32,000 nucleotides of DNA from NCBI GenBank assembly GCA_021650895.1, contig CP091278.1, positions 431,659 through 463,658 of the forward strand, read 5' to 3'. Below, piece by piece: positions 3,941-24,488 of this stretch. This stretch comes from Candidatus Jettenia sp. GTDB taxonomy: Bacteria; Planctomycetota; Brocadiia; Brocadiales; Brocadiaceae. Each line of letters begins with the position of its first letter. Positions within the stretch are counted from its first letter, which is position 1. The translations under genes were made by a program, and so were the position numbers. Under the pieces are notes generated by a model, which saw only the letters and a list, made by a program, of their open reading frames with translations, was not told where the DNA came from and did not search any database.

Positions 3941-4414
3941 ATGGCACAAGACATCTTAGCTGATTTAAGTACTTTGAATTTGAATACACCGATAGTGGAT
4001 ATTGAGGGTATTCGGACTATTATACCACATCGTTATGAAATGGAACAACTTAACGGTATTCTGAAATTCGATATGGAGCAGGGTATCATTGTAGGGTATA
4101 AAGATATTTCAAATAATGAATTTTGGGTACGCGGGCATATTCCTGGCAGGCCCCTCATGCCGGGGGTAATTATGTTGGAAGCAGCTGCGCAGTTATGCAC
4201 CTATTATTACAAACAAGCGACAAAGGACGATAGATTCCTTGGTTTTGGTGGTATAGATAAAGTCAAGTTTCGGGGAAAGGTCATTCCTGGTGATAGACTT
4301 ATTCTGATTGCAAAAAATAAGGAACTCCGCTCGCGAAGGGCTATCTTTGATACACAGGGAGTGGTAGACGGAAAGCTCGTTTTTGAGGGCATTATTATTG
4401 GTATGGTTGTTTAA
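3941..4414 (+). CDS. FabZ/FabA-like hot-dog-fold 3-hydroxyacyl-ACP dehydratase (orphan second copy), 157 aa
   Basis: IIPHRYEMEQL...FWVRGHIPGRPLMPGVIMLEAAAQL matches the FabZ signature (PHRxPF..., GHFPxxPxMPGV, EAxAQ) with the catalytic His and Glu present. It diverges from the canonical FabZ at 13975. Confidence 0.75.
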   Translation: MAQDILADLSTLNLNTPIVDIEGIRTIIPHRYEMEQLNGILKFDMEQGIIVGYKDISNNEFWVRGHIPGRPLMPGVIMLEAAAQLCTYYYKQATKDDRFLGFGGIDKVKFRGKVIPGDRLILIAKNKELRSRRAIFDTQGVVDGKLVFEGIIIGMVV

Positions 4415-8578: not shown

Positions 8579-10039
8579 TTATGTGGTAACAGTTTCCATG
8601 ACAGAGTTTGAAACAGGTACTGTACCTGATTTGTAGCAGTCCTTATAATAATCACCTGAATCATATAATTCTTTCAAGTTCTGCAATACCTGCTCAAATA
8701 CTTGCTTCCAATCTGAGCCTACTCTAAATGCAAACATAGAATTTCGTGGATTTTTCGTTGTCTTAATAGAATTTCTGAAGCGTGTTCTTAAATTATCACC
8801 TGCATAAATATGATCATAAACATATTGCATACCATCGATAAAGTTTTCTAATGTCATATCTACAAAACGATGAACTACATGAGCAGTATCATAATATTGC
8901 CAATCCTCTGGATAATTCTTTCTGAAAATTCTTTTTTCCGAATCCAATCGTGCATAAAGCTGTGTTTTTGGGAAGGGGCAGTTAATACCGAAGGTAAGAA
9001 TATCAATATTATTTTCCAATATAAACTCGGTCATTCTTTTAAAGGAATCTTTATCATCTCCATCAGCCCCAAATACTACCGATCCCCAGACAACTAACCC
9101 TGCATTATGAATCTTCTGAATGCAGTCAAAATAACTATCAGTTCCCAGTTTAAGATTTACCCGTTTATTCATCTTTTGTAATACCGCTTCGTTGGTAGAT
9201 TCTATACCAATAAGCATGCCAAAATTACCACTTTTTGCCATATAATCCAGCGTTTCCGGGTCTTGAGAAATATTTAAGGCGGTGAATCCTAACCAATCTT
9301 TATGGATACCACGTTCGACCATACCCTTAAAGAGATCCCGTGCCCTTTCGTTTGATTTTTTACCGTGACCATAAAAATTGTCTTCTGCCAGCATTAAACC
9401 CTTATAATCTGTTGCTGCCATCTCATCGAGTACGTCTTCATAGGGTCTTTCTCTGAACTTTCTCCCCTGGAAAGTAGGCACACTACAGAAATCACAATAG
9501 TTGGGGCATCCTTTTGTTGTAACGATAGAAGAAAATTTATAGTTGTACTTTTTCTTCATCAATTCACGATTAGGATATACCTTTTTCATCAAACTTAAAG
9601 GGGGAAGCCCTCCCTGATAGGTCTTTTTCAGCTTTCCTTCTTCAAAATCTTTTATAACCTGAGGCCACACTTCTTCAGCTTCTCCTACAAAAACTGAATC
9701 AACATACTTTGCGGCCTCTTCTGGCATTACCGATGCATGTATTCCACCCATTATTACCGTCATACCCTTTTTTTTGCACGCTGTAGCAATCTTATAAGCC
9801 CTTGGAGACTGGTAGGTTACTGCTGTGATACATACAAGGTCTACGGGTTTAAAGGTAATTTCGTCTTTATCATCGATTGCCAGTTCAATATTTTCATCTA
9901 TAATATCAAATTCCCAATCACCTGGTGTAAGGGCAGCAATATAAGCAAGATTCAAAGGCATTTGGACAATTACTGTAATACTTTCTTCTCCATGCCTACC
10001 CGGTTTATGTGGATTGATCAACATCATTTTTTTACTCAT
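8579..10039 (-). CDS. B12-binding-domain radical SAM enzyme (class B radical SAM), ~486 aa
   Basis: N-terminal flavodoxin-like cobalamin-binding region followed by the radical SAM core TTKGCPNYCDFCSVP (CxxxCxxC). I prefer the ATG at 10039 (MSKKMMLINPH): GGAGG lies 8 nt upstream and it forms an ATGA overlap with the stop of the desaturase gene. Confidence 0.85.
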   Translation of the reverse strand: MSKKMMLINPHKPGRHGEESITVIVQMPLNLAYIAALTPGDWEFDIIDENIELAIDDKDEITFKPVDLVCITAVTYQSPRAYKIATACKKKGMTVIMGGIHASVMPEEAAKYVDSVFVGEAEEVWPQVIKDFEEGKLKKTYQGGLPPLSLMKKVYPNRELMKKKYNYKFSSIVTTKGCPNYCDFCSVPTFQGRKFRERPYEDVLDEMAATDYKGLMLAEDNFYGHGKKSNERARDLFKGMVERGIHKDWLGFTALNISQDPETLDYMAKSGNFGMLIGIESTNEAVLQKMNKRVNLKLGTDSYFDCIQKIHNAGLVVWGSVVFGADGDDKDSFKRMTEFILENNIDILTFGINCPFPKTQLYARLDSEKRIFRKNYPEDWQYYDTAHVVHRFVDMTLENFIDGMQYVYDHIYAGDNLRTRFRNSIKTTKNPRNSMFAFRVGSDWKQVFEQVLQNLKELYDSGDYYKDCYKSGTVPVSNSVMETVTT

Positions 10040-11499
10040 ATCATTTGCCTCCAATTCTCCATAATTAAATTAGCAACACTCCAACCCGAAGAGACCACAG
10101 CGGAAATTCCAGGGCCTGGTCTTGTCCAATGTCCAGCTAAATATAAATTGTCAACAGGCGTCTCATGTGGCAACCTATTTTCCCACATTTGATCTGCGGT
10201 AACCGCCCAACCGTAAGCGGCTCCATGGGTATTTAACGTGTAACGCTCCAGGGTTTTTGGAGTAGCCGCCTCTTTTACTTCGATATATTTTCTAATTTCA
10301 GGAAGGTATTTCTCCAATCTCTTTATCGTGTTTGCAATCATGTCTTCTTTAAAAGATTTCCAGTTTTTAACATCCTTGTATGCCTCCTCTTTCATGGAAA
10401 CAACTACTGAAATTATTTGTTTGTTTGATGGCGCAAGGGTTGGGCATATCTTTGTTGGAACTGATATATACATCCACTCGTCATCCAGATAACGACTATC
10501 TGTAGCAGTATGATAAAATCCTCTTTTTAGGCTCGTTAAATCTATGTTGCTTCCCAATCCTAGATATAAAAGAAAAAAAGAGCAACTCTCTTTCATTCCT
10601 TCAATTTTTTTAAGGAATGATACATCAATTTTATCTTTTAGTAACTCAAAAAAAGTTTGCCGAACATCAATATTTGAAACCACCAAGCCTGATACTATCT
10701 CTTTACCGTTTTGCAGTTTAACACCAATAACGGTTTTATTATTCAATAATATTTTTTCGGCTCTGGATGATAACATAACGTGTCCGCCAAAATCAATAAA
10801 TTTCTTAAAAATTGTATTAGCAAACTCTTGTGTACCGCCCACAGGGAAAAAGGCACCATCCTTGAGATAATTAATCATCATTTGACACATGGCAATCGCA
10901 GAGGCCTGAGTAGGGGGGAGTCCTATGTAACCCCATTGACCGGAAAGTACCATCTTGAGTTCTTCAGTATTAAAATAATCATGTAACATATCATGGTAGG
11001 TATGGTTTTTATATTTTTCGATAATTTGGCTTTTTTCATTATTGAATGTAGCACGATAGAGTTTTATAAAATCCTGGAAGAAATTTTTAATAGCATCTTT
11101 TTCTGAAGGGTAACGGTTTTGTAAGCGAGCAATATATTCATCCAGATCTGCGGGAATTTCAATGCTGAAGCCGGGGAATATCAGGTGATCCATAGGATCC
11201 AGAGGGTAGAAATCCATTTCAATCCCAAGTATTTTTAAACAGCGGCCGACAACACTCCACTTTCCACAACCTCCAATATGGTGAACTGCTGCATCAAAGG
11301 TAAAACCTTTTCTCTTAAAAGAAGTGCAATAGCCGCCAGGAATAGAATGCTGCTCTACCAGGAGAACCCTCTTTCCACTTTTGGCAAGAAAGGTACCACA
11401 AACTAAACCAGCAATGCCCGTACCAATAATAATTACATCATAATGAGGGTACAACAGATCATTTTTTGTGGATCGAATATAACCGGTGGAAGGCACCAT
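10036..11499 (-). CDS. FAD-dependent oxidoreductase of the phytoene desaturase (CrtI/CrtD-like) family, 487 aa
   Basis: N-terminal dinucleotide fold YDVIIIGTGIAGLVCGTFLAKSGKRVLLVEQ...PGGY, with size and C-terminal blocks typical of CrtI-family desaturases. Starts 3 nt after the stop of the KS-like gene. Confidence 0.8.
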   Translation of the reverse strand: MVPSTGYIRSTKNDLLYPHYDVIIIGTGIAGLVCGTFLAKSGKRVLLVEQHSIPGGYCTSFKRKGFTFDAAVHHIGGCGKWSVVGRCLKILGIEMDFYPLDPMDHLIFPGFSIEIPADLDEYIARLQNRYPSEKDAIKNFFQDFIKLYRATFNNEKSQIIEKYKNHTYHDMLHDYFNTEELKMVLSGQWGYIGLPPTQASAIAMCQMMINYLKDGAFFPVGGTQEFANTIFKKFIDFGGHVMLSSRAEKILLNNKTVIGVKLQNGKEIVSGLVVSNIDVRQTFFELLKDKIDVSFLKKIEGMKESCSFFLLYLGLGSNIDLTSLKRGFYHTATDSRYLDDEWMYISVPTKICPTLAPSNKQIISVVVSMKEEAYKDVKNWKSFKEDMIANTIKRLEKYLPEIRKYIEVKEAATPKTLERYTLNTHGAAYGWAVTADQMWENRLPHETPVDNLYLAGHWTRPGPGISAVVSSGWSVANLIMENWRQMI

Positions 11500-11502
11500 G
11501 AA

Positions 11503-12741
11503 TTATCTTTTGTATTTAGAGATAATGAGGGAAGAGTTATTGCCTAATCGTGAGAAGGAATTTATGAGAATGTTCTTGGCTGGTAAAGTACTTTTCTGGG
11601 TCACATAACTTAGGTCACAATTCTCGTCTCGTTCCTTATAATTAATGGTAGGTGGAATTATGTGGGTGTTAACAGACATGACTGCAGCTACTGTTTGCAA
11701 TGCACCCGAAGCATCAAAACACTCGCCTGTCATAGATTTAATGGCTGTTACAGGGAGAAGATTTGCCCGCATACCAAAAACTTCTTTAATAACCTGGGTT
11801 TCCATCGCATCGCCGTATACCCCAGAATAAGCATTAGCAGATATGTAGGAGATGTCGTGGAGCGTGAGACCGGCATCCTGAATGGCGTTTATAACAGCTC
11901 TTCTGTTACCATCTATTTGATAATCCTTACTTATAGCCATTTTCGGCTCGAATGCTGTCCCATAACCTTTGACTTCTGCATAAATGTGTGCGTTCCTTTT
12001 CAGTGCATTTTCCAGAGTCTCAAGGACGACCAGGGCTGATGCTTCACCAATAACCATTCCGTTGCGTCTCTTATCAAAAGGTGCACAAATTTCCAGGGTT
12101 CCATAGGTGCTTCCCGATAATATTTTAGAATTATGCGACCCCCAAAATATATCATGAGTCAATCCATGTACACCACCTGCTAATACAGCTTTAACACGGC
12201 CCATACGGAGGAAATCAGAGGCATAGATGACCGCATCGATACTGCTGGTAACACCATTTGAAATGGTTGTATTCAGCCCGGTTGCCTTACAGAAAATCGA
12301 TGCCCGGCTTGCTGGTGCATTTAATACCGTATTAGGAAAGTCCATAGGGTTAACATAATTCGGACCTTCACGCAATGACTGGAAATCAAAAGAGCTAATG
12401 CTGTCTATGCTGCCATAGGTAGATCCCACAACAATACCCAGCTCTTCTTCGTTGTATGTAGTATTTTCAAGATTGGCATCTTTGATGGCAAGAACCGCTG
12501 CGGATGATACAAGAAGGGATGTACGGTCAATGTGGCGAATTCCCTTTTGTCCAAGGTAAACTTTTGCATCAAAATCAGAAATTTCTCCCGCTTGCTTGCT
12601 ATTAAAGTTACTTACATCAAATAAGGTGATAGGCTTTATGCCTGATACACCGTTGGTTAAATTTTCCCAGAAAACATCTTTACCTGTTCCAATAGGCGAG
12701 AGAACCGAAACACCCGTAATAACAATCCTCGTTTTTTCCAT
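11503..12741 (-). CDS. Beta-ketoacyl synthase-like protein lacking the Cys-His-His triad (KS-beta / chain-length-factor-like partner), ~412 aa
   Basis: Thiolase-fold KS homolog that aligns along its whole length with the adjacent FabF-like protein. Its catalytic positions read Val165 (NTTISNGVTSS), Asn (YISANAYSG) and Glu (KSMTGECFDASG). The ATG at 12741 shares one base with the upstream TGA (TGATG); an alternative TTG at 12744 gives a 4-nt overlap. Confidence 0.85.
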   Translation of the reverse strand: MEKTRIVITGVSVLSPIGTGKDVFWENLTNGVSGIKPITLFDVSNFNSKQAGEISDFDAKVYLGQKGIRHIDRTSLLVSSAAVLAIKDANLENTTYNEEELGIVVGSTYGSIDSISSFDFQSLREGPNYVNPMDFPNTVLNAPASRASIFCKATGLNTTISNGVTSSIDAVIYASDFLRMGRVKAVLAGGVHGLTHDIFWGSHNSKILSGSTYGTLEICAPFDKRRNGMVIGEASALVVLETLENALKRNAHIYAEVKGYGTAFEPKMAISKDYQIDGNRRAVINAIQDAGLTLHDISYISANAYSGVYGDAMETQVIKEVFGMRANLLPVTAIKSMTGECFDASGALQTVAAVMSVNTHIIPPTINYKERDENCDLSYVTQKSTLPAKNILINSFSRLGNNSSLIISKYKR

Positions 12742-13967
12742 CAAGAGCCTCTTTTAAATTTTTTCACAACTAAACAGCTGTTGTTACCACCAAATGCATG
12801 AGCATTATTAAGCGCAATGTTTACTTCCTGTTTTCTTGCAACGTTAGGAACATAATCCAGGTCGCATTCCGGATCGGGGGTCTCATAATTAATCGTAGGG
12901 GGGATAATATCATTTTGAACAACTAAAGCGCAAGTAATTGCCTCAATTGCGCTTGCAGCTCCCATGGTATGTCCTATCATTGATTTTATTGAACTGATAG
13001 CGAGATGTTTTGGTTTATCCCCAAACACCTTTTTGATTGAAATCGTTTCTGCTTTATCGTTTGCGGGTGTGCCTGTTCCGTGAGCACTGATGTACTGAAC
13101 ATCTTCAGGTCTTAAATCTGCATTTTTTAATGCCTTTTTCATTGCAGAGACGACACCTTCCCCGTCTGGATGGGGGATGGTTATATGATATGCATCGCAA
13201 CTGAGTCCATAACCGGTTATTTCCGCATAAATAGGGGCATTCCTCTGTAATGCATGATCAAGTGATTCTAGAAGGAGCATACCAGCTCCCTCACCAACCA
13301 TCATGCCTTTTCTGTTTTTATCAAAAGGCTGACATATTTCCGGAGCAATAGCGCCTAGTCGTGCAAATCCCGTATATGCAACCTTCGAAAAAGGGTCTGA
13401 ACCACCAGCGATCATCATGTCCACCCTTCCGAATTGAATTAAATCGTATGCATATCCGATTGCATAATTGCCGGCTGCACAGGCGGTGGGAATAATAGTA
13501 TTGGGACCTTTGAATCCAAATTCGATGGCAATATTGGCAGGGATATTATTACATGGATGCATTAAAAACAGATCGGGAGCAACTTTGTCTTCGCCATCTC
13601 TATGCCTTATATAATTGACTTTTTCCAGGATTTGTATTTCTCCCGCAGTCGTACCTACAGAAACACCTATCCTTTCCAGATTAATCGCATTCAAATCGAG
13701 CTGGGCGTCATTTAAGGCCAGCTTTGCGGCTGCAATTCCGAATTGTGAACCTTTACCAATTTTTTTAAGAACACCGTTCTTTATATAGTTTGAATAATCG
13801 AAGTTCTTAACTTCACATCCTTTATGGACTTTGTATTCAGAGGTATCAATACATGATACCTTATCGACACCTGATACCCCGGCAATGAGGGAATTCCAGA
13901 AAACATCCTTTCCTGAACCGATAGGGGTAATCATTCCTACGCCTGTTATAACTACGCGTTTATTCAT
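12741..13967 (-). CDS. fabF: Beta-ketoacyl-ACP synthase II-type condensing enzyme (active KS), 408 aa
   Basis: Complete catalytic set: PTACAAG (Cys), DAYHIT, SAHGTGT (His), [14 protein letters not shown] (Lys/His), C-terminal FGGNNS. Confidence 0.9.
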
Positions 13968-13974
13968 AATTTAT

Positions 13975-14427
13975 TTATAGTAATGCACTTTTTTCAGCAA
14001 TTCCAAAAGTTAAAGTAGCCTTAGCAACTGCTTTTTCATCAACTTTTACCGTTGCCTGAATAATAGCTCCTTTCGATACGATCTTTTCTACATTGATTTC
14101 TATAAGGAGTTGATCGCCAGGGAAGACGGGTTTTGTAAATCTTGCATTGCCAATTGATGCCAGTAAAAAAACCGTATCCTTACCGCTTTGTATAGGAGGA
14201 AGGCTTTTCCTGAATAGGATAATAGAAGCCTGTGCCATTGCCTCGATAATTAAAACGCCAGGCATAATAGCAAAGTCAGGGAAATGTCCGACAAAAACTG
14301 GCTCATTGCCAGAAACATTTTTTACACAAATAATTTTTTTCCCTTCTTCAAACTCAATAACTTTATCAATAAATATAAAAGGATATTTTTGAGGGAGAAG
14401 GGATCTGATTTCCTCAAAAGATATCAT
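13975..14427 (-). CDS. fabZ: 3-hydroxyacyl-ACP dehydratase FabZ, ~150 aa
   Basis: LLPQKYPFIFIDKV...FVGHFPDFAIMPGVLIIEAMAQAS is the canonical FabZ signature. Start is ambiguous: the track ORF begins at a TTG (14436), and I prefer the ATG at 14427. Confidence 0.9.
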   Translation of the reverse strand: MISFEEIRSLLPQKYPFIFIDKVIEFEEGKKIICVKNVSGNEPVFVGHFPDFAIMPGVLIIEAMAQASIILFRKSLPPIQSGKDTVFLLASIGNARFTKPVFPGDQLLIEINVEKIVSKGAIIQATVKVDEKAVAKATLTFGIAEKSALL

Positions 14428-14503
14428 ACTGTACAAATCTTCTCTTCTTGCATCATTGCCTAATTGTCCTGTAAATTATCATACTCTGTGTGTCAGATGT
14501 ATT

Positions 14504-14773
14504 TTAAGATGAAAGTTTTCCGCTTTCAGCTAAGACAGATTTTGTTAAATCAATCGTAGCTGCCAGCGATGTAATATCAACAAGCTTTTCTTCCGGAATT
14601 TGCACCTTAAATTTCTTTTCAATAAGAGCAAGAATTTCAAGGGCTAAAAGAGAGTCAATTTCAAGATCTTTAAAGAAATTTGCATCTCTTTTAGCCCAAA
14701 TTTCTTTTTCATCCAGCTCTGTAACCTCAGCCACAATAGCGGTTACACCTTTTTCAATCTCTTCTGCGTTCAA
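14504..14773 (-). CDS. Cluster-dedicated acyl carrier protein, 89 aa (track ORF is over-extended at the 5' end)
   Basis: Phosphopantetheine site LEIDSLLALE (DSL). TTG start at 14773 with AAGGAG 7 nt upstream (14786..14781). The 21 extra N-terminal codons of the track ORF lie in what looks like the 5' UTR. Confidence 0.85.
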   Translation of the reverse strand: MNAEEIEKGVTAIVAEVTELDEKEIWAKRDANFFKDLEIDSLLALEILALIEKKFKVQIPEEKLVDITSLAATIDLTKSVLAESGKLSS

Positions 14774-14850
14774 AATTATTCTCCTTATTAATAATCTGCC
14801 TAACAAACGACATAGCATCCACTCAGCATAATCCAAAAATAAGAAAGACC

Positions 14851-14879
14851 ATCGTATCAGACATAATTTACATTGTCAA
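14851..14879 (-). promoter_or_regulatory. sigma70-like promoter of the ACP-to-radical-SAM operon (TTGACA-17 nt-TACGAT)
   Basis: Minus-strand reading: TTGACA (14879..14874), a 17-nt spacer, then TACGAT (14856..14851). It lies about 80 nt upstream of the ACP start. Confidence 0.45.
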
Positions 14880-15146: not shown

Positions 15147-15758
15147 TTATTTGCTTTTTCTTGAAGCCATTCTCTCCTGTTTTGATTCCTGTTTCTTCAG
15201 TTTGCTCAGTTTGCCTAATGCACGGTATATTTGTCTTTCCAACATAGTCTCGTACTCAGACAGATCTTTCAGTTTGGTTTTATCCTCAGCTATTTTCAAT
15301 GCTTTTAACTGTTTCAACTCAACATTTGTCCTCTTTCTTGTCCTGAAAAATCCTTGCTCGTACTCCTGAATACAAGAAGCGGCGTAGTCCATTATCTGAC
15401 CTTCAATCTTCAGACATCGCTTCAGTCGCCACATACTCGAAATAATACGATCTGCAATAATCGATTCAATCTCATTTGATGGTTTTAATTCTCGTGTAAG
15501 GCGATTTCTTAACTCGTCAAGATCAGCTTCGTTTTCGCCATCTATTAATATTTCTTTACTAAAGATAGACTCTGTTATACTTTTGCTTTCCTTAGATTTC
15601 AACGGGTCTGAAGATGTTTTGGTCTTAACTTCCGTATCTTTCCCGTGTATTGTTTTCGATTGATCAACTATCGTATTCATTATCTTATCGATCTTTTCTT
15701 TATTAACATTATCCGGATGCTTTTCACGTAAAACGTCGTCTTTTAGAATTGTTGACAT
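15147..15758 (-). CDS. Hypothetical lysine/glutamate-rich, probably coiled-coil protein, 203 aa
   Basis: Intact ORF with AAAGGAAAAAG upstream of the ATG. No motif I recognise. The C-terminal half (RIISSMWRLKRCLKIEGQIMDY...LKQLKALKIAEDKTKLKDLSEYETMLERQIYRALGKLSKLKK) looks helical. Bracketed by repeat copies A and B. Confidence 0.5.
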   Translation of the reverse strand: MSTILKDDVLREKHPDNVNKEKIDKIMNTIVDQSKTIHGKDTEVKTKTSSDPLKSKESKSITESIFSKEILIDGENEADLDELRNRLTRELKPSNEIESIIADRIISSMWRLKRCLKIEGQIMDYAASCIQEYEQGFFRTRKRTNVELKQLKALKIAEDKTKLKDLSEYETMLERQIYRALGKLSKLKKQESKQERMASRKSK

Positions 15759-16106: not shown

Positions 16107-16742
16107 ATGAAAATTAATGAAATATTTAAGAGTATTCAGGGGGAGACCTCTTATGCTGGTTTGCCGTGTACCTTCATACGGATAACAGGTTGTAACTTGC
16201 GCTGTCGTTATTGCGATACTACCTATGCCTATGAAGATGGAGTAGAAATGTCAATGAATTCGATTCTTGAAAGTATTCATGACTTTTCATCAAATTTGGT
16301 TTGTATAACGGGTGGCGAGCCTTTATCAAATGAAGATACACCGCTATTGATTCAAAGGCTGCTCGATAAAAATTATACGGTACTGGTAGAAACAAATGGC
16401 AGTTATGATATTCGTATGATACCGGAGAAAGCTGTAAAGATTATGGATATAAAGTGTCCTGGTAGTACTATGAGTCATACAATGCATTGGCAAAATATCG
16501 CCTATTTAACACAATCAGACGAGGTAAAATTTGTTTTAGCTTCCAGAGACGATTACGACTGGACGAAGGATGTGATACAGAAATATAATTTATCAGGAAT
16601 TGCGAAGGTATTGTTAGGAACAGTTTTTAATACAATCTCTCCACAATCCGTTGTACAATGGATTTTAGAAGACAATCTCAAGGTGAGATTTCAACTGCAG
16701 CTCCACAAGTATATATGGGAACCACACACGAGGGGTGTTTGA
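16107..16742 (+). CDS. queE: 7-carboxy-7-deazaguanine synthase (radical SAM, queuosine pathway)
   Basis: MKINEIFKSIQGETSYAGLPCTFIRITGCNLRCRYCDT is the QueE N-terminal signature with its CxxxCxxC variant. 211 aa. Confidence 0.9.
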   Translation: MKINEIFKSIQGETSYAGLPCTFIRITGCNLRCRYCDTTYAYEDGVEMSMNSILESIHDFSSNLVCITGGEPLSNEDTPLLIQRLLDKNYTVLVETNGSYDIRMIPEKAVKIMDIKCPGSTMSHTMHWQNIAYLTQSDEVKFVLASRDDYDWTKDVIQKYNLSGIAKVLLGTVFNTISPQSVVQWILEDNLKVRFQLQLHKYIWEPHTRGV

Positions 16743-16747
16743 TAGTT

Positions 16748-17419
16748 ATGAAAGATTTAGCAATTGTGCTCGTCAGCGGAGGTATGGACAGCTGCGTAAC
16801 ATCAGCTATTGCAAATACGCAGTACGAGCTTGCATTCTTACACGTTAATTATGGTCAGCGCACCGAAACAAGAGAGTTGAAGGCATTTCGCGAAATTGCG
16901 TTATACTATCGTATACCTGACGAGAGAATCCTCATCTCAGATGTTGATTATCTCAGGAAGATTGGAGGTTCAAGTTTAACCGACCCTCGCATGAACATTC
17001 AGGAGGTACAGTTACATAATAAAGAAATCCCGACTTCTTATGTTCCTTTTAGAAATACTATTTTTTTAACGATTGCTGTTTCCTGGGGGGAAATAATTGG
17101 GGCACGAAAGATATTTATTGGTGCTGTAGAGCAAGATAGCCCCGGTTATCCTGACTGTAAGCCGGTATATTATGAGATATTTAATAAGCTGATTAAGGCA
17201 GGAACAAAGCCAACAACGTTTCTTGAGGTAGAAACACCACTCATAGGGAAGAGTAAATCTGAAATTGTTACCATGGGTCTTTCTTTGATGGCGCCTCTTC
17301 ATCTCAGTTGGTCTTGTTACAAGAATACCGATAAAGCATGTGGGTTATGCCATAGTTGTTTCCTGCGCCTAAAAGCCTTTAAAGAAGCACATGCGGTAGA
17401 TCAAATTCCCTATGTTTGA
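16748..17419 (+). CDS. queC: 7-cyano-7-deazaguanine (preQ0) synthase
   Basis: True start is MKDLAIVLVSGGMDSCV (SGGxDS PP-loop) at 16748, 5 nt after the queE stop. C-terminal zinc cysteines CYKNTDKACGLCHSC. The track ORF start at 16658 is an upstream over-extension inside queE. Confidence 0.9.
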   Translation: MKDLAIVLVSGGMDSCVTSAIANTQYELAFLHVNYGQRTETRELKAFREIALYYRIPDERILISDVDYLRKIGGSSLTDPRMNIQEVQLHNKEIPTSYVPFRNTIFLTIAVSWGEIIGARKIFIGAVEQDSPGYPDCKPVYYEIFNKLIKAGTKPTTFLEVETPLIGKSKSEIVTMGLSLMAPLHLSWSCYKNTDKACGLCHSCFLRLKAFKEAHAVDQIPYV

Positions 17420-17495: not shown

Positions 17496-18140
17496 TTATT
17501 TTTTACTTCCAAAAATATAATCTGCATCTTTTGGTGTGAGTCCCCGATATAAATCGCGAACAAACTCCTGTGCCAAAGTGAGCGCATCCTCCAGAGTATC
17601 TTCCGTGCTGGGAATAGCAAGCCGTATCATGAAGCCCACCCTGTTTTTATTAAATAATGAAAAATATAACTCTTTTATTTTCTGTTTAGTCCAATCTACA
17701 ATGCCTTTATCAATACAAATCCAATAGATTAACAAAAAGCCTTCGGTATTTTTTTGAGCATAGAGGGCATGGGTTTTTAATGTACGACCTGCCAGATGAA
17801 ATTCCTGATCATAGAGCTCTCTTACTTTAAAGCCAGCTCCATGAGAGCAGATCTTTGGGTTATGAAAATTACCTGCATTCAGGATAGAGAAAAACAAATT
17901 TTTATCATGTGCATTTACATACCTGCGTTCGAGAATCTGACTGATAAAATTATATTTTTTATCTTCTAAATTCCATTCATCTCTTATATCAATACCTTGC
18001 CAACTATTCATGGTATAGGGGATTTCCAGGCGAGAAAAAACCTCCGAACTTGTATACTTAGTCCTGGGAAATAAAAAACAATAAACGAGAGCAAATGAAA
18101 TCCATGCCAAAGCTATGTAGGGCTTAAGATGTTCATGCAT
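17496..18140 (-). CDS. epsI: EpsI-family exosortase-associated protein, 214 aa
   Basis: N-terminal TM helix, then W-G, RRY, HNPKICSHGAGF, LIYWICI and GFMIRLAIPS blocks in the order typical of EpsI (DUF3485) proteins. Sits in an exosortase gene neighbourhood. The start overlaps the upstream gene by 28 nt. Confidence 0.7.
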   Translation of the reverse strand: MHEHLKPYIALAWISFALVYCFLFPRTKYTSSEVFSRLEIPYTMNSWQGIDIRDEWNLEDKKYNFISQILERRYVNAHDKNLFFSILNAGNFHNPKICSHGAGFKVRELYDQEFHLAGRTLKTHALYAQKNTEGFLLIYWICIDKGIVDWTKQKIKELYFSLFNKNRVGFMIRLAIPSTEDTLEDALTLAQEFVRDLYRGLTPKDADYIFGSKK

Positions 18141-19636
18141 TTTTGTCTATCGATTCGTGATTGTTCTTTAAGGTTCAGAAGTCCGTCAAACTGAAACCGT
18201 GTATCTATTTTGCTTCGTAATTCCTCTTCATCCAGTGCAAAATGAGGACTAATCTCTATAAGACCAATAACATTGCCCTGAGGATCCATGGGAATAGATA
18301 TACCGGCATTACGTAACCATCTCCCGAATAAATTAACTATATCCCGTTTTGCTGTAGCTGGCGAATCATCGCCTTCTGAATTTTTTACCGGTGAGAATTC
18401 TTCTTCCCGAAGAACCTCCATAACTACCCCCTGCTTTACATATCTGAGTATATCAAAGATAAAGCTCTCAAATTTAACAGCATTATTCTTATCAGGATTT
18501 ACCATATCTCCTTTCTCATTCAGACAGGACACTTTTTTGAAGGCTACATGGTACGGAAGAGAATTTTCCATTCGGTATACTTTTTCGAGAAAGTCAATAT
18601 GGATCATATGCACCCCAATACTTCCTGCATTATATTTCAGCATACCATTCCCATTTCTAGCATGCATATCCTCCTGGCTGAGTTCACTATATTCAGCAAT
18701 ATGGAGATGCCCGTCGATATATCCTACAATGCCTACCTTTTCTTCCGCATGGCGTTTTTTAACAACCTTTAACGATATCTCTGCTTTACTTCCTGTATGG
18801 TAACCAAGAAAAACCGGATCGGCCATCTTTATGAGCACGTTATCAATCTGATGATAAAAGATCTGTCTGACACCACGCCTCCTCATATCGGCAAGAATAC
18901 CCTTCTCCCTCAAAGCAATAATAACTCCTCCATGACCATTGGGACTCATAACAATATTTGACTTTGAATTCATCAACACCTTCCCTTGCAGGTCTACTAC
19001 AGGAAGCATACCTTGGGTAAAAAAGCATACCTGTCTGGCATCTAATCCAAAGAAGTGGTGTGATTGAAAAAAATCCTGCGTTGCCTGATTATTGGTCTCG
19101 CTGGTCATGATATACCAGGGAACTGGTATACCATATCGCTGCTGAAGGGCATGGATCTTTTCTGCATGAAGCTGAAAGATGCTTTTCCCACTGATCGGTG
19201 CAATGTGAATCATCCCTTTTGGTCCATTGCCTCCCAGTCTGGATCCATCTCCACCTGCGACGGTAAGGATGGCAGTCTCTCCTTTCCGGAGAGATGACTC
19301 CCCTAGCTGTTTTGCCGCCTCTGCAAGCTCCCTTTCAAGGGTATTCGATGGGACAGAGATAACGTGAGGAGGGAGTAAACTACCCTGAATGGCGGATGCT
19401 GTTTTCTGGAGATTCTGATGAAAGAGTTTCTCGATGAGCTGAAAATCTATTGAGGCGATCTGTGCCAGGAGAAGTTCTTTTTCCCCGGGCGATATTTCAT
19501 CCCACCATTTGAAGACGTGCTGCTGCTTTGCCTCAAAGGTGTTTTTGATGTGCTTCTTATAGTTTGGATACTCTTTTTCTAGTATTTTTCTATTCAATCT
19601 TAGTTTGTAAGGTGTAAGTTTTTTCTGAAAAGACAT
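18113..19636 (-). CDS. UDPGP type 1 family UDP-sugar (UDP-GlcNAc/UDP-hexose) pyrophosphorylase, eukaryote-like UAP/USP type, 507 aa
   Basis: Nucleotide-binding loop LTVAGGDGSRLGGNGPKGM, size and downstream blocks (YIMTS, PNGHGG) resemble UAP1/UDPGP enzymes. The ATG at 19636 overlaps the exosortase 3' end by 37 nt; an in-frame TTG at 19597 (2 nt after that stop) is an alternative start. Confidence 0.7.
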   Translation of the reverse strand: MSFQKKLTPYKLRLNRKILEKEYPNYKKHIKNTFEAKQQHVFKWWDEISPGEKELLLAQIASIDFQLIEKLFHQNLQKTASAIQGSLLPPHVISVPSNTLERELAEAAKQLGESSLRKGETAILTVAGGDGSRLGGNGPKGMIHIAPISGKSIFQLHAEKIHALQQRYGIPVPWYIMTSETNNQATQDFFQSHHFFGLDARQVCFFTQGMLPVVDLQGKVLMNSKSNIVMSPNGHGGVIIALREKGILADMRRRGVRQIFYHQIDNVLIKMADPVFLGYHTGSKAEISLKVVKKRHAEEKVGIVGYIDGHLHIAEYSELSQEDMHARNGNGMLKYNAGSIGVHMIHIDFLEKVYRMENSLPYHVAFKKVSCLNEKGDMVNPDKNNAVKFESFIFDILRYVKQGVVMEVLREEEFSPVKNSEGDDSPATAKRDIVNLFGRWLRNAGISIPMDPQGNVIGLIEISPHFALDEEELRSKIDTRFQFDGLLNLKEQSRIDRQKCMNILSPT

Positions 19637-20424
19637 TCTAGGCCAATTAATCCTGATAGAATAATCATAAAGATAACAATTCCACTAAAATTATGAAAAA
19701 ATCCTTGTCCTGCCGCTTCACCAAAATAATAGGTTATGATACATAATGTTATTACGCGGATAAGATTCCCAAATAATGAAAGAGGAATAATAAAAGAGAC
19801 TAGCAAAGTTTTTTTGGGTAAACTTGCTTTGCTGAGATATACATAAACCAAAGCCAATGAGAACATAGTAATAAGGGAACGAAAACCACTGCAAGGCTGA
19901 CCCATAAACAGCTCATTACTGCCAATGGATAATAAAAGCCCTTCTCTGGTAATGGGGTAATCAAAAAGTCTTAAGATTACCTCGGTAGCAATAGTAATTC
20001 CGTAACGCATAGGTAAGGTAATGCTATCCACAATGCCGAGAGGAAGAGGAACAATAAGGATAAGATAGAAAATGGGAAAAGATAATATTCTTGTTATGCT
20101 CAATCCGTAAAGATAGCGGATTAACCCGTATAATACAGGAAGTAGTGAAAGTGTTGTAATGAATATATAATTTTGGTGCTTCCCAAAAATAAACATGAGG
20201 ATACCCATTAAAAAAATGAAAAGACCAAAAAAATTATTATCAGGTTTAATCTTTTTAAGATGTTCCCTCAGGCTTGTATGTTTACGCCACACAAGCCAAA
20301 AGAATATTGGCAGAATAAAGTAAGCATGGGTATAATCGGAAGCCATCCACTTTGATCGGTACAGTACATAGATAACGGTGGCATACAGAGATGCTGTTAG
20401 TATCCAAACAAGATAATGAACCAT
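19600..20424 (-). CDS. Exosortase (polytopic membrane transpeptidase of the PEP-CTERM system), 274 aa
   Basis: Multi-pass membrane protein with the three hallmark blocks: QPCSGFRSL (Cys), FGNLIRVITL (Arg), FFHNFSG (His). Subfamily not assignable by eye. Confidence 0.85.
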   Translation of the reverse strand: MVHYLVWILTASLYATVIYVLYRSKWMASDYTHAYFILPIFFWLVWRKHTSLREHLKKIKPDNNFFGLFIFLMGILMFIFGKHQNYIFITTLSLLPVLYGLIRYLYGLSITRILSFPIFYLILIVPLPLGIVDSITLPMRYGITIATEVILRLFDYPITREGLLLSIGSNELFMGQPCSGFRSLITMFSLALVYVYLSKASLPKKTLLVSFIIPLSLFGNLIRVITLCIITYYFGEAAGQGFFHNFSGIVIFMIILSGLIGLECLFRKNLHLTN

Positions 20425-20495
20425 AGGAAACGTATATCCGAATCAGGGTATTTAGAGGATTATATAAGCATAAGATTTTGGGTTTTTATTGTTTT

Positions 20496-20551
20496 GTTTG
20501 TAGTGGCAATTTCCATATCGGAGAAGGCAATATAAAATTACCACTACAAAC
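20496..20551 (-). other. Intercistronic stem-loop between the PEP-CTERM mini-gene and the exosortase gene
   Basis: GTTTGTAGTGG (20496..20506) pairs perfectly with CCACTACAAAC (20541..20551). After a 1x1 mismatch, 5 more A-T pairs follow (20508..20512 with 20535..20539), leaving a 22-nt loop. No U-tract follows on the minus strand. Confidence 0.55.
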
Positions 20552-20564
20552 TAGGAGCGGTTTG

Positions 20565-20783
20565 TTAAGATTGCTTATCTAAATTCTTTGAACCTTTCTT
20601 AGCCCTCCATCGGCGAAAAACTGCCAGAGTAGCTCCCCCTGCCAAAAGGAGTAAATAACTCAATGGTTCCGGAGCATTCGGAGGCACTCCATCGGTAGCA
20701 CCATGACCTGCAAAAATATTACTACTCAATAGTACACCATGTAATAAAAGTATTGAAAACCATACCATTACATTTTTTTTCAT
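20565..20783 (-). CDS. Minimal PEP-CTERM protein, 72 aa (signal peptide + ~12-residue linker + PEP-CTERM sorting signal)
   Basis: MKKNVMVWFSILLLHGVLLSSNIFA|GHGATDGVPPNA|PEPLSYLLLLAGGATLAVFRRWRAKK GSKNLDKQS. PEP is encoded at 20672..20664, followed by a TM helix and an Arg-rich cluster. GGAGG lies 8 nt upstream of the ATG. Confidence 0.8.
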   Translation of the reverse strand: MKKNVMVWFSILLLHGVLLSSNIFAGHGATDGVPPNAPEPLSYLLLLAGGATLAVFRRWRAKKGSKNLDKQS

Positions 20784-21201
20784 ATTTTATTCCTCCAAAA
20801 TCTTAAATCTGTAAGAGTCTTTCCTGCAAAATCTTTAGCGCTCATGCTTATTGTCCGCTACACCTGGAGAAACTGTGTACTCACAATATGAATAATCAAC
20901 TTTACCTAAGTACGATGTTGTCTATTTGTGTCCTGTGTTTCATCGAAAAACCAAACAACTTCTCACTTCCGCTCCTTTCTGAATTAATACGGAAAGCACG
21001 TTATAGAACATTTCTGGAGACAGACTTAAAAATATTTTTCATATCATTGTTTGTCTGCAAAAAATTGACACATATCCAACCTTCAACTATCAAAAAATAT
21101 ACCATAGATAAAAAAATAGTTTTATTGTATTTCTGACTATGAAAATAGAGGTTTTCCGGGAAGAAAAGTGATAAAAAATCATAAAACTAAGGCCCATAAC
21201 G

Positions 21202-21249
21202 CTGTAACTGTCACAATAGTGTGTTGTCACACTATTGTGACAGTTACAG
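21202..21249. repeat. Perfect 22-bp-arm palindrome with 4-nt centre (CTGTAACTGTCACAATAGTGTG-ttgt-CACACTATTGTGACAGTTACAG)
   Basis: All 22 pairs checked base by base (c21202-g21249 through g21223-c21228). It sits in a ~1-kb AT-rich stretch with no convincing genes. Confidence 0.9.
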
Positions 21250-21484
21250 TATGTGATATCAGAGAAAACATAACACGGAAAGGCTCATTGTACGAAAGTT
21301 TATGTATTTATCATAAAGCAAGCAGTTATTCGCATACCGTCAGTATTCTGAAGAGGGAAGTCAAAAAATTATTGAATATTTATTGGAATATTGACAGGTA
21401 AAGGCATGGCTTGTGCGCAATATCGGGGGTAGAAACAAATATGATCAGAAATCTTACAGAAATAACGAAAGGCAGATATATAAT

Positions 21485-21676
21485 ATGGAGAATAAAAAAG
21501 AAAAAATATCCTTATTTAATGAATTTTCAAACCTTGAAGAGGCTGAAAATAAGATAAATAAATGGATTGAAGAAGATTACAATCAACAGGGTATCTACCC
21601 TGCTTTTCAATATAAGGATTATGAAAATAAGGATTACGAGAAGTTTGAAAAAGCCAATTATAAAAGCTTAATTTGA
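21485..21676 (+). CDS. Possible 63-aa acidic small protein (MENKKEKISLFNEFSNLEEAENKINKWIEEDYNQQGIYPAFQYKDYENKDYEKFEKANYKSLI)
   Basis: Internal ATG of the 87-aa track ORF with only a weak GAAAGG upstream. It is the only plus-strand ORF here without repeat-derived sequence. Low-complexity composition; may be spurious. Confidence 0.2.
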   Translation: MENKKEKISLFNEFSNLEEAENKINKWIEEDYNQQGIYPAFQYKDYENKDYEKFEKANYKSLI

Positions 21677-21718
21677 TGCATAGGAATTCAACGTTGAGCT
21701 TTTGTATCGTTTCGTGTA

Positions 21719-21771
21719 TGTAGGGCAAACCTTCAGGTTTGCGCCTTTGCAAGGCTAAAGCCTTGTCCTAC
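21719..21771 (+). repeat. REP-like structured repeat, copy C (compact two-hairpin form)
   Basis: TGTAGGGCAAACCttcaGGTTTGCgcctttGCAAGGCTAAAGCCTTGtCCTAC, about 50 nt downstream of the stop of the methyltransferase gene at 21823. Confidence 0.75.
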
Positions 21772-21822
21772 TTGGAATCATATGCCTCATACCCGCATAA
21801 GTTATGTTGAAAAGCTATGGTA

Positions 21823-23022
21823 TTAAATAGCAAATAACAGTTTAGGATTTAAACCTAATGAATTTAGCTGTTGTTGGATTTCCTGCTTATAGAGAGGATT
21901 CATAATAATGACATTATCAGGTATATGATTTTTTAATTCTTCTGGTAAGATTATTTTTTGACCGGTTCCTGGCATATAGCATCCTTTCTTCCGAGGATTA
22001 ATATCAACAACATAGGTAATTTGATCCTTAATATTTAGTATATTTAAAAAGCTCACACTTTTGCTTCCTGCGCCCCATATAACCGTACTTTCATTATTTT
22101 GCTCAATGTGCTGCAGGGTGTTTTCCCACTCTTCTAATTTTATCCTGCATTTATAAGAAAAATCGCGGACGAGGGTTAGCAATTCTTTTATCTTATTCGA
22201 ATTCCTTGCTAATGATTTTCCAACATCTCTTGCAGGAGTTGCTTCAATACCTATAAATTGATTCCCAAAACTCTCAAATAGCTTAACCGTATCAAATTTT
22301 GAGAGATTAAATACCCTCTCAAGCGAAGTCGCTCCAAAGTAGGAACAGTGCTCATAAATTATATCCCATACTGAAAGCTCTTTGAGAATGAGTAATATGT
22401 TGGGGACTTCAAAATATAAAATGGGATTGTCTTGTCCATCGATAGTTGAACGTAGTGCGGTCAGAAATTCAAAAGGATTTGGAATATGCTCAAATACATG
22501 GCGACTACATATTAAATCTCCCTGATAATGAGAATAGTTCGCTGAATAATAATCTCTGATAAACGTTATTCGATCTGATGATTGTACAGGAGAAAGATTT
22601 CCCCGGTAGCTTGGGTCAAAACCCGTTCCGTAATTTTTTCCTATTTTACAGATTAAAGATAAAAAGTCACCTTTACCCGAACCGATTTCAATTATTTTTT
22701 TGTCATATAATTGGTAATCTTCTACAAGCCTTTTGGCGACTGATTCAGCATAATTTTGATAATATTTTGAGAAATGGAGAGAGTTATCATACTCTTCAGT
22801 ATATTCCATCAATGAAGAATCAAAGGCAATGTTGGAAATAAATCCACAATCGCTGCAACATGCCAGTTCTATATCTCCCCTGAGACAATTAAGAGCTTCT
22901 TCTTTACTTCTCCATAAAATACCAACATGAGCCGGAGCATAAGGTATTGTATAAAAAGTTGAAAATTGCGATGATAAACAAACAGGACATTTAGTTACCC
23001 TTTGTTCAGACTGTAGTGACAT
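21823..23022 (-). CDS. Zinc-ribbon + class I SAM-dependent methyltransferase with C-terminal Methyltransf_14-like domain (NDP-sugar C-methyltransferase family), paralog 1, ~399 aa
   Basis: CPVC...CSDCGF zinc ribbon, SAM motif IIEIGSGKGDFL, WDIIYEHCSYF block, C-terminal VIWGAGSKS...VVDINPRKKGCYMPGTGQKI. Start moved to the ATG at 23022 (MSLQSEQ) because the 29 upstream codons of the track ORF are translated repeat copy D. Confidence 0.75.
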   Translation of the reverse strand: MSLQSEQRVTKCPVCLSSQFSTFYTIPYAPAHVGILWRSKEEALNCLRGDIELACCSDCGFISNIAFDSSLMEYTEEYDNSLHFSKYYQNYAESVAKRLVEDYQLYDKKIIEIGSGKGDFLSLICKIGKNYGTGFDPSYRGNLSPVQSSDRITFIRDYYSANYSHYQGDLICSRHVFEHIPNPFEFLTALRSTIDGQDNPILYFEVPNILLILKELSVWDIIYEHCSYFGATSLERVFNLSKFDTVKLFESFGNQFIGIEATPARDVGKSLARNSNKIKELLTLVRDFSYKCRIKLEEWENTLQHIEQNNESTVIWGAGSKSVSFLNILNIKDQITYVVDINPRKKGCYMPGTGQKIILPEELKNHIPDNVIIMNPLYKQEIQQQLNSLGLNPKLLFAI

Positions 23023-23076
23023 TGAGAAGCAATTCCTTTCGTATGATAGATATAAATTGTATAGGAATTTCAATTC

Positions 23077-23128
23077 TGTAGGGCAAACCTTTAGGTTTGC
23101 GGAATACAAGGCTAAAGGTTTGCCCTAC
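23077..23128 (+). repeat. REP-like structured repeat, copy D
   Basis: TGTAGGGCAAACCtttaGGTTTGCggaatacaaggctaaaGGTTTGCCCTAC. The left arm (23078..23089) can pair with either the proximal GGTTTGC (23094..23100) or the distal GGTTTGCCCTAC (23117..23128). Confidence 0.75.
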
Positions 23129-23183
23129 TTCGGACACCGTTTTTTTATGAGGGAAGACAGAGACCGTAAGATTTTACATCTCT

Positions 23184-23244
23184 TTGGGTTGCTATCCTGG
23201 CGCATGTATTCTGGTGGGTCGGCAAGGCTAAAGCCTTGCCCTAC
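23184..23244 (+). repeat. REP-like structured repeat, copy E (5'-truncated, perfect module 2)
   Basis: ttGGGTTGCTATCCtggcgcatgtattctggtgggtcGGCAAGGCTAAAGCCTTGCCCTAC. Like copy D it is followed by a CACCGTTTTTT tail, so D and E form a tandem pair. Confidence 0.75.
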
Positions 23245-23287
23245 TTTCAGCACCGTTTTTTCTGATTTGAAGGTTATATACATGTCA

Positions 23288-24058
23288 TTAGCTCCAAATC
23301 TTCCATGGGGCGTTACCATTTTGCCAAAGATCTTCTAATAATCGCTTATCGCGTAACGTATCCATACATTGCCAAAAGGATACATGGCGGTATGCCGCCA
23401 GTTGTCCATCTCTCTCCAATGATTCCATAGGTTTTCTCTCCCATTGCGTAGTATCGCCATCGATGTAGTTAAGTACTTCAGGTTCCAGAACAAAGAAGCC
23501 GCCGTTTATCCATACCTCATTCTTCTCGGGTTTTTCAGAAAATTTTTTCACATAATCTCCTTCTAAATCAAGATAGCCAAAGCGTGCATTTGGCCGGACA
23601 GCAGTTAATGTGGCATACCTCTGATGAGTGTTATGAAACAGTAACAATTTACGCAAATCTACATTAGATACCCCATCTCCATAGGTTAGCATAAACGTTT
23701 CATTTCCTATATAAGGGGCAAGTCGCTTGATACGACCGCCTGTAAGTGTTGAAATTCCCGTATCAACCAAATCAATTACCCAATCAGGTTTGCCAGTGCC
23801 ATGAGCTTTTACATCTCCATTTTTTAAATTTACAGTTAAATTACTGTTCAGCGAACAATAATCCACGATGTACTTTTTAATTACCTCGCCTTTATAACCA
23901 AGGGCAATGATAAAATGATTAAAACCATAATAAGAGTAATGCATCATAATATGCCAGAGGATTGGTTGACCTCCAATCTCTACCATCGGTTTTGGTTTTA
24001 TCTCTGTCTCTTCTGCGAGTCGGGTACCTAAACCTCCGGCAAGAATGACTACCTTCAT
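23288..24058 (-). CDS. rfbF: Glucose-1-phosphate cytidylyltransferase (CDP-glucose pyrophosphorylase), 256 aa
   Basis: MKVVILAGGLGTRLAEETEIKPKPMVEIGGQPILWHIM...INGGFFVLEP...FWQCMDTLRDK...APWKIW is the canonical RfbF signature from end to end. AAGGAA upstream of the ATG. Confidence 0.88.
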   Translation of the reverse strand: MKVVILAGGLGTRLAEETEIKPKPMVEIGGQPILWHIMMHYSYYGFNHFIIALGYKGEVIKKYIVDYCSLNSNLTVNLKNGDVKAHGTGKPDWVIDLVDTGISTLTGGRIKRLAPYIGNETFMLTYGDGVSNVDLRKLLLFHNTHQRYATLTAVRPNARFGYLDLEGDYVKKFSEKPEKNEVWINGGFFVLEPEVLNYIDGDTTQWERKPMESLERDGQLAAYRHVSFWQCMDTLRDKRLLEDLWQNGNAPWKIWS

Positions 24059-24167
24059 GTTTTTATTTCCTTAAAAATACAGATACCTAATAAGACTGAG
24101 ATCGAATGCTCAGTACATTCTGTTATATCTTTTATAGAAAGAGCAGAGATTCTCTATAATTTCCTTA

Positions 24168-24196
24168 TGTAGGGCGAGGCTTTAGCCTTGCCCTGC
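24168..24196. repeat. REP-like repeat, copy F (module 2 only)
   Basis: TGTAGGGCGAGGCTTTAGCCTTGCCCTGC, a near-perfect palindrome. Confidence 0.7.
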
Positions 24197-24267
24197 GTAG
24201 TTGAAATTTCTCAACGTTTAATTAGGTTGGGTCGTAAAAGGCAAAACCCAGTGACTGTTCTTTTTAT

Positions 24268-24413
24268 CCACCCCTTTTACCCACACCTCAATCCCCTCCC
24301 GAGAGGGGGACTTTTTTATTCCCCTCCTGGGAGGGGTTAGGGGTGGGTTCATTCCCCTGTAGAGACGCAAAATCTTGCGTTTCTACTTCTTTCGTAAAAT
24401 CTTGCATCTCTAC
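24268..24413. repeat. Cluster of other short palindromic repeat classes (C/G-tract hairpins and GTAGAGACGCAA hairpin)
   Basis: CCCCTC-ccga-GAGGGG (24293..24308). CCCCTCC-tg-GGAGGGG followed by TTAGGGGTGGGT (24321..24347). GTAGAGACGCAAaatcTTGCGTtTCTAC (24359..24386) plus a half copy at 24393..24413. Confidence 0.65.
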
Positions 24414-24488
24414 AATGGAGATCAAAGATTGAATTTCCCTAACATCAAGGTAACATAGCTTTTGATAATTTTGATACTGGATCGCCGA

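Follow-up and report, generated by a model that had tools for sequence, protein, structure and literature searches.

The window analyzed here is a 32,000-nucleotide (nt) stretch of Candidatus Jettenia sp. DNA (contig CP091278.1, positions 431,659 to 463,658 of the forward strand), and our subject is a pair of adjacent genes within it that encode an active ketoacyl synthase (KS) and a KS-like partner lacking the catalytic triad. The pair lies among six tightly packed minus-strand genes at 8579..14836, for which open reading frames (ORFs) and Pfam and NCBIfam matches indicate, from the 5' end, an acyl carrier protein (ACP), FabZ, the KS, the partner, a CrtI-like oxidoreductase, and a B12-binding radical S-adenosylmethionine (radical-SAM) enzyme (Table 1).

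Table 1. Features of the six-gene operon and of its KS/partner pair, in coordinates of the window.
Feature	Coordinates	Strand	Basis or remark
Promoter-like TTGACA-17-TACGAT, with TG (candidate)	14851..14879	-	5' of the ACP start
amxACP, anammox-specific acyl carrier protein	14504..14773	-	Pfam PP-binding; DSL phosphopantetheine motif
amxFabZ, 3-hydroxyacyl-ACP dehydratase variant	13975..14436	-	Pfam FabA, NCBIfam FabZ
Active KS, amxFabF2/KustE3605 ortholog, 408 amino acids (aa)	12741..13967	-	Both Pfam ketoacyl-synthase domains; PDB 9s5h_B
KS catalytic Cys163	13479..13481	-	Residue check
KS catalytic His296	13080..13082	-	Residue check
KS catalytic His333	12969..12971	-	Residue check
TGATG stop/start overlap, KS/partner, 1 nt shared	12739..12743	-	Junction reads TCT TGA TGG
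Dead KS-like partner, amxFabFmut/KustE3606 ortholog, 412 aa	11503..12741	-	Both Pfam ketoacyl-synthase domains; PDB 9s5h_C
Partner Phe135-Pro-Asn-Thr138-Val139, helix-loop-helix motif	12325..12339	-	Residues present; anammox-invariant
Partner Val164, codon GTT; aligned with the nucleophile Cys	12250..12252	-	HMMER and MAFFT alignments
Partner Asn303, codon AAT; aligned with the first catalytic His	11833..11835	-	HMMER and MAFFT alignments
Partner Lys335 ... Glu340-Cys341; Lys kept, Glu for the second catalytic His	11722..11739	-	Alignments
CrtI/phytoene-desaturase-family flavin adenine dinucleotide (FAD) oxidoreductase, KustE3607 ortholog	10036..11499	-	Pfam/NCBIfam; synteny
B12-binding radical-SAM enzyme, KustE3608 ortholog	8579..10054	-	Radical_SAM and B12-binding; synteny

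The KS and its partner are paralogs of one another (35% identity, E = 8e-83). Neither reaches the 493.75-bit cutoff of the canonical FabF model TIGR03150, the KS scoring 478.5 bits and the partner 317.6 bits, and by these scores the two are divergent FabF-family proteins rather than housekeeping FabF. The KS matches PDB chain 9s5h_B at E = 3e-252 with about 93% identity, and the partner matches 9s5h_C at E = 4.1e-238 with about 88% identity (both identities counted on the printed alignments). KS-type and partner-type chains occur together in entries 9s5h and 9s5i, the latter adding a single amxACP chain. The ACP of the window matches this chain (9s5i_E) as well as PDB 7auf, entered as "Similar to acyl carrier protein" (E = 2.4e-43), and the FabZ matches PDB 8ayd (E = 1.7e-73) and 7qv0. 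Metagenome-assembled genomes (MAGs) of Candidatus Jettenia sp. encode proteins 100% identical to the partner, that of J. ecosi is 99% identical, and among its best 120 database matches all those with a named organism come from anammox bacteria (Brocadiales) or unclassified Planctomycetota bins. By homology and gene order, we identify the locus as the anammox "Cluster I" (KustE3603-3608) in Candidatus Jettenia. The pair agrees with the amxFabF2/amxFabFmut pair of that cluster in sequence identity, gene order, triad pattern, tunnel residues, and anammox host, and is a member of it.

This pair has already been the subject of published work. Rattray et al. (2009; PMC2649909, Table 2) listed Kuste3606 with Val163/Asn298/Lys328/Glu333/Arg392, a pattern identical to that of the window partner, and Javidpour et al. 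(2016; PMC4790861) termed it a "non-canonical FabF". A preprint by Granatino et al. (bioRxiv, May 2026, 10.64898/2026.05.19.726425; hereafter the preprint) reported that KustE3605 and KustE3606 are inactive singly and co-elute and co-purify, that only the co-expressed complex decarboxylates malonyl-amxACP and yields acetoacetyl-ACP, and that crystal structures were obtained of the B. fulgida heterodimer (2.6 A) and of a C8-amxACP complex (2.1 A). According to the same preprint, the catalytic triad is met only by the tunnel beginning on amxFabF2; partner residues Phe135, Thr138, and Val139 line the KS acyl tunnel in the B. fulgida structure; the partner variants V139G and F135G/V139G shift the C6/C8/C16 preference in crosslinking assays; and amxFabZ prefers substrates of up to 6-8 carbons. 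An initial annotation of the window, made from its letters, had proposed a heterodimer resembling a KS with a chain length factor (CLF), in which the partner is non-catalytic and shapes the pocket, and this proposal matches the published data on orthologs that are ~88-93% identical to the Jettenia proteins. The observation is correct but not new, since both the literature and the PDB already contain this system.

To set the register of the two active sites, we aligned the partner with B. subtilis FabF in HMMER and built a MAFFT alignment in which E. coli FabF and FabB were included. Cys163/His303/Lys335/His340/Phe400 of E. coli FabF correspond to C163/H296/K328/H333/F392 in the KS, which besides its catalytic residues also retains Lys328 and the gate Phe392, and to V164/N303/K335/E340/R398 in the partner. 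The absence of a Cys-His-His triad from the partner, first seen in a manual alignment, is borne out by these FabF-anchored alignments, which place Val164, Asn303, and Glu340 at the three positions and agree on the one register that had been drawn by eye. No other register restored Cys/His/His in the partner, and no such set of residues was found elsewhere in it. The peptide blocks quoted for the two proteins are all present in the translations, those of the partner being NTTISNGVTSSIDAVIYASD / YISANAYSGVYGDAME / AIKSMTGECFDASG, and the fold-defining blocks IPPTINY and G-NNS occur in both KS and partner. One number had to be corrected: the codon at 12252..12250, given as that of Val165, is indeed GTT and encodes Val, but residue 165 is reached only by counting from a TTG at 12744, and since the orthologs and the PDB chain start at the ATG at 12741, we number it Val164. 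Thirteen of the 14 tunnel, Mg-site (metal), and catalytic residues of the preprint that were checked are present in the window KS and partner; the exception, Ile112, is one position off and lies within a stretch identical to the B. fulgida sequence. The electrostatic asymmetry that was reported from the structure was not reproduced when the net charge of the interface motifs was calculated from sequence alone.

Residue conservation was followed in alignments of 115 partner orthologs and 49 KS sequences. The KS keeps C/H/K/H/F in 49/49 sequences, and no non-chimeric partner has the Cys or either His. At the Cys position the partner orthologs have V, I, T, or E and never Gln, which extends to the whole set the remark of the initial annotation that the Gln of CLFs is missing from the window protein, with its Val164. 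In the 115-ortholog alignment, the first His position is N or C except in one chimera. All of its sequences but the same chimera have Glu at the second His position, and Lys335 is invariant; a second alignment includes one Brocadiales lineage with Asp at the second His position. The Lys and the Glu (Asp once) recur across all partner lineages examined, non-anammox lineages included, and a conserved Lys-Glu pair may fill the dead active site of the partner. The Phe135-Thr138-Val139 motif is invariant in anammox orthologs. The chimera, P0056 (410 aa, on a 2.5-kb ENA contig), is a "partner" in which both histidines are kept (V-H-H-K-F); its first ~240 residues resemble the partner and the remainder the KS, and most likely the two paralogs were fused in assembly, so that it is not a transitional form.

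A protein that has lost all three triad residues and the gate Phe, and whose Cys and first His positions vary by lineage (V/I/T/E and N/C), might be taken for a decaying pseudogene, i.e., a functionless relic of a tandem FabF duplication. However, the reading frame is intact in 48/48 KS-partner pairs recovered, and 150 of 412 positions are invariant in a 13-sequence partner alignment that reaches from Jettenia to Scalindua. We calculated the ratio of nonsynonymous to synonymous substitution rates (dN/dS) by the Nei-Gojobori method for 36 ortholog pairs with dS < 1. The medians were 0.053 (KS) and 0.074 (partner), the highest value being 0.107, and the values of the partner (0.03-0.11) are comparable to those of the active KS. 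The partner is under strong purifying selection and is therefore not a decaying pseudogene; relaxed selection on the partner orthologs, which would have been the mark of decay, was not seen. The proteins have also been reported as expressed and co-purifying (preprint). With the pseudogene hypothesis refuted by the selection analysis, we give it next to no probability. Neighbor-joining trees of KS and partner mirror each other, as in co-diversification, and the groups are well delimited in bootstrap resampling (all cluster KS, 200/200; all partners, 181/200; anammox KS, 200/200; anammox partners, 192/200).

The TGATG overlap, from which the initial annotation had read translational coupling of the pair, is present at the junction, where the KS stop TGA (12743..12741) and the partner ATG (12741..12739) share one nucleotide, but it is not conserved among such pairs. 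Among the loci compared, only the window and Jettenia ecosi (L001) have the 1-nt overlap; the spacer between KS and partner in other anammox genera is 2-147 nt and in many cases contains a Shine-Dalgarno motif of AGAGG type, and in more distant relatives KS and partner overlap by 4 nt. As the 1-nt overlap is confined to Jettenia, translational coupling was ruled out as a conserved feature. What is conserved is the adjacency of KS and partner and the gene order, the six-gene order being kept in every anammox locus long enough to hold all six genes. In the window and in 48/48 recovered KS-partner pairs, the active KS comes first (5') and the dead partner second; the preprint, under "Sequence comparison", places amxFabFmut just upstream of amxFabF2, the opposite of the order found here.

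We consider it very probable that the Jettenia pair forms an obligate amxFabF2/amxFabFmut heterodimer with a single active site, in which the non-catalytic partner biases chain length in the manner of a CLF. The heterodimer, its complex-only activity, and the effect of partner residues on chain-length preference have been shown for the close orthologs of Kuenenia and Brocadia. For the Jettenia pair we observe orthology, the same residue pattern, synteny, and purifying selection, and nothing in the sequence contradicts this explanation. The Jettenia proteins would presumably behave identically to their orthologs, with their product feeding ladderane synthesis.

Under this heterodimer mechanism, Cys163 of the KS would be acylated from acyl-amxACP, and His296 and His333 would drive malonyl-ACP decarboxylation and condensation. 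The partner, with Val, Asn, and Glu for the triad, would not be acylatable; instead, Phe135, Thr138, and Val139 of its helix-loop-helix would build part of the acyl-tunnel wall of the KS. In this way the partner would both stabilize the active KS and bias the complex to short chains (C6-C8), like a polyketide chain length factor, and such a short-chain bias agrees with the preference of amxFabZ for substrates of up to 6-8 carbons. The complex would decarboxylate malonyl-amxACP to give acetoacetyl-amxACP, probably at the KS site. The Cluster I operon is generally held to start ladderane fatty-acid synthesis. The initial annotation had supposed that the partner shapes the acyl pocket rather than taking part in decarboxylative priming. 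The effects of Phe135 and Val139 support the first half of that statement, but the heterodimer does decarboxylate malonyl-amxACP, so that priming does occur. Its suggestion of a link to a strained-ring lipid is in keeping with the anammox "ladderane cluster", whose product would feed ladderane synthesis.

Several points limit the heterodimer interpretation. In vitro, the orthologous heterodimer made only acetyl- and acetoacetyl-ACP and no longer chains; the assay of its chain-length preference was a crosslinking reaction that is not physiological; experiments have not linked any Cluster I protein to the formation of ladderanes; and S. brodae amxFabFmut can crystallize as a homodimer with a disordered interface motif (all from the preprint). 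The experimental support comes from the orthologs throughout and not from the Jettenia proteins. Chain composition suggests that 9s5h and 9s5i are the preprint's structures, the codes being absent from its main text, and a literature search on PDB code 9S5H found nothing relevant.

The partner could also be an independent enzyme with other chemistry, for which it might use residues outside the lost triad, for example the anammox-invariant Cys341; in the proposal of Rattray et al. (2009; PMC2649909), it joins a ladderane unit made separately with a short linear acyl chain. The dead-site region is highly conserved (AIKSMTGEC.DASG), Cys341 is invariant in 39 anammox partners, and a polyethylene glycol molecule was seen in the crystal in a surface-accessible tunnel that belongs to the partner itself (preprint). 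However, that tunnel is without access to a catalytic triad, the partner alone was inactive and did not crosslink with alpha-bromoacyl-ACP probes, and the heterodimer gave only the amxFabF2=ACP adduct (preprint). Cys341, for its part, varies (C/S/L/A/P) in non-anammox partners. We regard an independent enzymatic role as very unlikely. Cys341 and Cys151 were both rejected as alternative nucleophiles, being anammox-invariant but not invariant in the wider family, with no partner adduct reported in the preprint.

Relatives of the KS/partner module were also recovered outside the anammox bacteria. In the clearest case, an uncultured deltaproteobacterium carries a Cluster-I-like operon (L047:6024-15129) in a 17-kb locus of 69.5% guanine-cytosine (GC) content on a 1.8-Mb contig. 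It comprises an ACP, FabZ, a KS (58% identical), a partner (45%), a CrtI-like gene (47%), three B12 radical-SAM genes, and a further KS/partner pair, and its partner has E/G/K/E/Y at the five key positions. Two further loci (L045 and L048) were noted with it. In Acidobacteriota, loci L051, L053-L058, and L067 have the arrangement ACP-KS-partner, and four of these have a CrtI-like gene ~2-4 kb downstream. The non-anammox loci were recovered by peptide patterns that included NPM[DE]FPNT, and the conservation of Phe135 and Thr138 in them is thus partly a selection effect. A Scalindua-like locus labeled Thermodesulfobacteriota (L025, 66% identity) was not counted as non-anammox, since its 8-kb contig of 39% GC is probably mis-binned.

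The KS/partner module is thus not confined to anammox bacteria. The preprint describes the cluster as exclusive to bacteria that produce ladderanes, a statement that needs qualification because of the deltaproteobacterial and Acidobacteriota loci and of the synteny with Desulfotalea psychrophila, a ladderane-free organism, that Rattray et al. (2009; PMC2649909) had noted. Given that earlier synteny, the occurrence of the module outside anammox bacteria is not fundamentally new. Because Lys335 is invariant and Glu340 almost invariant, and because a tunnel of the partner's own opens to the surface, the dead site might be more than a relic and the tunnel a second functional pocket, for instance for holding the growing or desaturated chain or for presenting it to the CrtI-like and radical-SAM enzymes; and because the whole six-gene pathway occurs in a deltaproteobacterial MAG and KS-partner pairs near CrtI-like genes occur in Acidobacteriota, the module might make a modified lipid precursor of wider distribution and not be specific to ladderanes. 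We hold this extended proposal to be possible but unlikely.

Ladderane lipids are among the most unusual natural products, and the KS/partner heterodimer is the entry point of the candidate pathway to them. To the published system the window adds one more anammox genus, along with some smaller additions: the purifying selection on the dead subunit is quantified, the two subunits co-diversify, the overlap of their genes is not conserved, and there are syntenic relatives beyond anammox bacteria, which bear on whether Cluster I is specific to ladderane producers.

Elsewhere in the operon, the start of the ACP gene needs revision. The listed ORF (14504..14836) would encode 110 aa, while translation from a TTG at 14773, which has an AAGGAG 7 nt upstream of it, yields a protein of 89 aa whose N-terminus coincides with the beginning of the alignment to the crystallized amxACP; the TTG is probably the true start and the 110-aa ORF too long. 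The promoter-like site 5' of this start is a candidate operon promoter on weak evidence, as the region has no more such sites than shuffling leads one to expect. On TIGR04072 ("rSAM_ladder_B12"), whose cutoff is 360 bits, the radical-SAM enzyme scores 89.5, and its assignment to that model was rejected, the model standing for another radical-SAM enzyme of anammox bacteria. About 4 kb past the end of the radical-SAM gene, on the opposite strand, lies a second FabA/FabZ-family gene (3941..4414, +) with a weak ApeI-like match, and several Jettenia, Brocadia, and Kuenenia loci have a gene of this kind similarly far away. Directly upstream of the cluster, 15147..15758 (-) is a 203-aa Lys/Glu-rich ORF with no Pfam or NCBIfam match. 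The flanks at 16107..17419 (+) and 17496..31615 (-) hold ordinary genes, among them those for a small radical-SAM protein adjoining QueC, an exosortase (EpsH) with DUF3485, a UDP-glucose pyrophosphorylase-family protein, C-methyltransferases, a glycosyltransferase, a sulfotransferase, and a Polysacc_synt-family membrane protein for polysaccharide biosynthesis. Together these flanking genes look like a polysaccharide biosynthesis region.

Canonical CLFs of aromatic polyketide synthases (PKSs) carry Gln at the Cys position. The type II PKS KS/CLF of actinorhodin (PDB 1tqy) resembles the Jettenia pair in joining an active KS to an adjacent, inactive, heterodimerizing paralog that shares in forming the acyl tunnel and in controlling chain length. 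It differs in that the Jettenia partner has Val rather than Gln at the nucleophile position and is much more FabF-like. The partner matches B. subtilis FabF at E = 2.6e-75 and the actinorhodin CLF (1tqy_B) at E = 9e-39, and by these values is closer to FabF than to the solved type II PKS CLFs. Genomic context differs as well, with cyclases and aromatases around type II PKS genes and, in Jettenia, a fatty-acid-like setting (ACP, FabZ) along with a CrtI-like enzyme and a B12 radical-SAM enzyme. One could still place the partner in the type II PKS CLF clade proper and suppose that it performs decarboxylative priming itself, as has been proposed for the CLF Gln, and the adjacent gene pair, the heterodimer, and the decarboxylation of malonyl-ACP by the complex (preprint) would all fit. 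With Val in place of that Gln and the closer similarity to FabF, we judge this extremely unlikely; the partner is CLF-like in function and not a demonstrated member of the CLF clade.

A further parallel is Iga11/Iga12 of the highly reducing type II PKS for ishigamide (PDB 6kxd, 6kxe), also a KS with a CLF-like partner, which acts on reduced or polyene-type chains. The preprint names Iga11 as amxFabF2's nearest homolog in structure. Our KS matches 6kxd_A strongly (E = 6e-99), with canonical FabFs scoring higher than Iga11, and among the 60 PDB matches listed for the partner, none is a chain identifiable as Iga12. The cispentacin system, with AmcF and other type II PKS-like enzymes (NF058662, NF058663), is likewise FabF/FabZ-derived and carbocycle-making; its cluster content and product are unlike those of Cluster I, and the KS, partner, and FabZ of the window score 242, 142, and 104 bits against AmcF/AmcE, all below the cutoffs of 325 and 140.

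Within the anammox bacteria, Kuste2804/Kuste2805, a FabF and a non-canonical "FabB" adjoining a radical-SAM gene, offer a second comparison. There too the partner is without the triad, keeps Lys328, and has Glu at the position of His333, the pattern being Phe/Asn/Lys/Glu in Table 2 of Rattray et al. (2009; PMC2649909). These proteins belong to another cluster and clade, have 47% and 34% identity to the window proteins, and are absent from the window; we found no report of a Kuste2804/Kuste2805 heterodimer in the anammox cluster literature examined. Candidatus Subterrananammoxibius californiae has a radical-SAM-KS-partner module (L062:5133-9323), with F/N/K/E/Y in the partner, that resembles Kuste2803-2805, a resemblance that points to another heterodimer system of KS and dead partner among anammox bacteria. 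The closest known system is amxFabFhet of Kuenenia and Brocadia (KustE3605/KustE3606; Broful02171/Broful02170). It comes from other species, Jettenia being unmentioned in the preprint, and has 2-147-nt spacers where Jettenia has the 1-nt overlap. Its proteins are nevertheless the orthologs of the Jettenia pair, encoded in the same six-gene operon, and have in common with it the partner's Val/Asn/Lys/Glu/Arg, the Phe135/Thr138/Val139 motif, and the catalytic and Mg-site residues of the KS.

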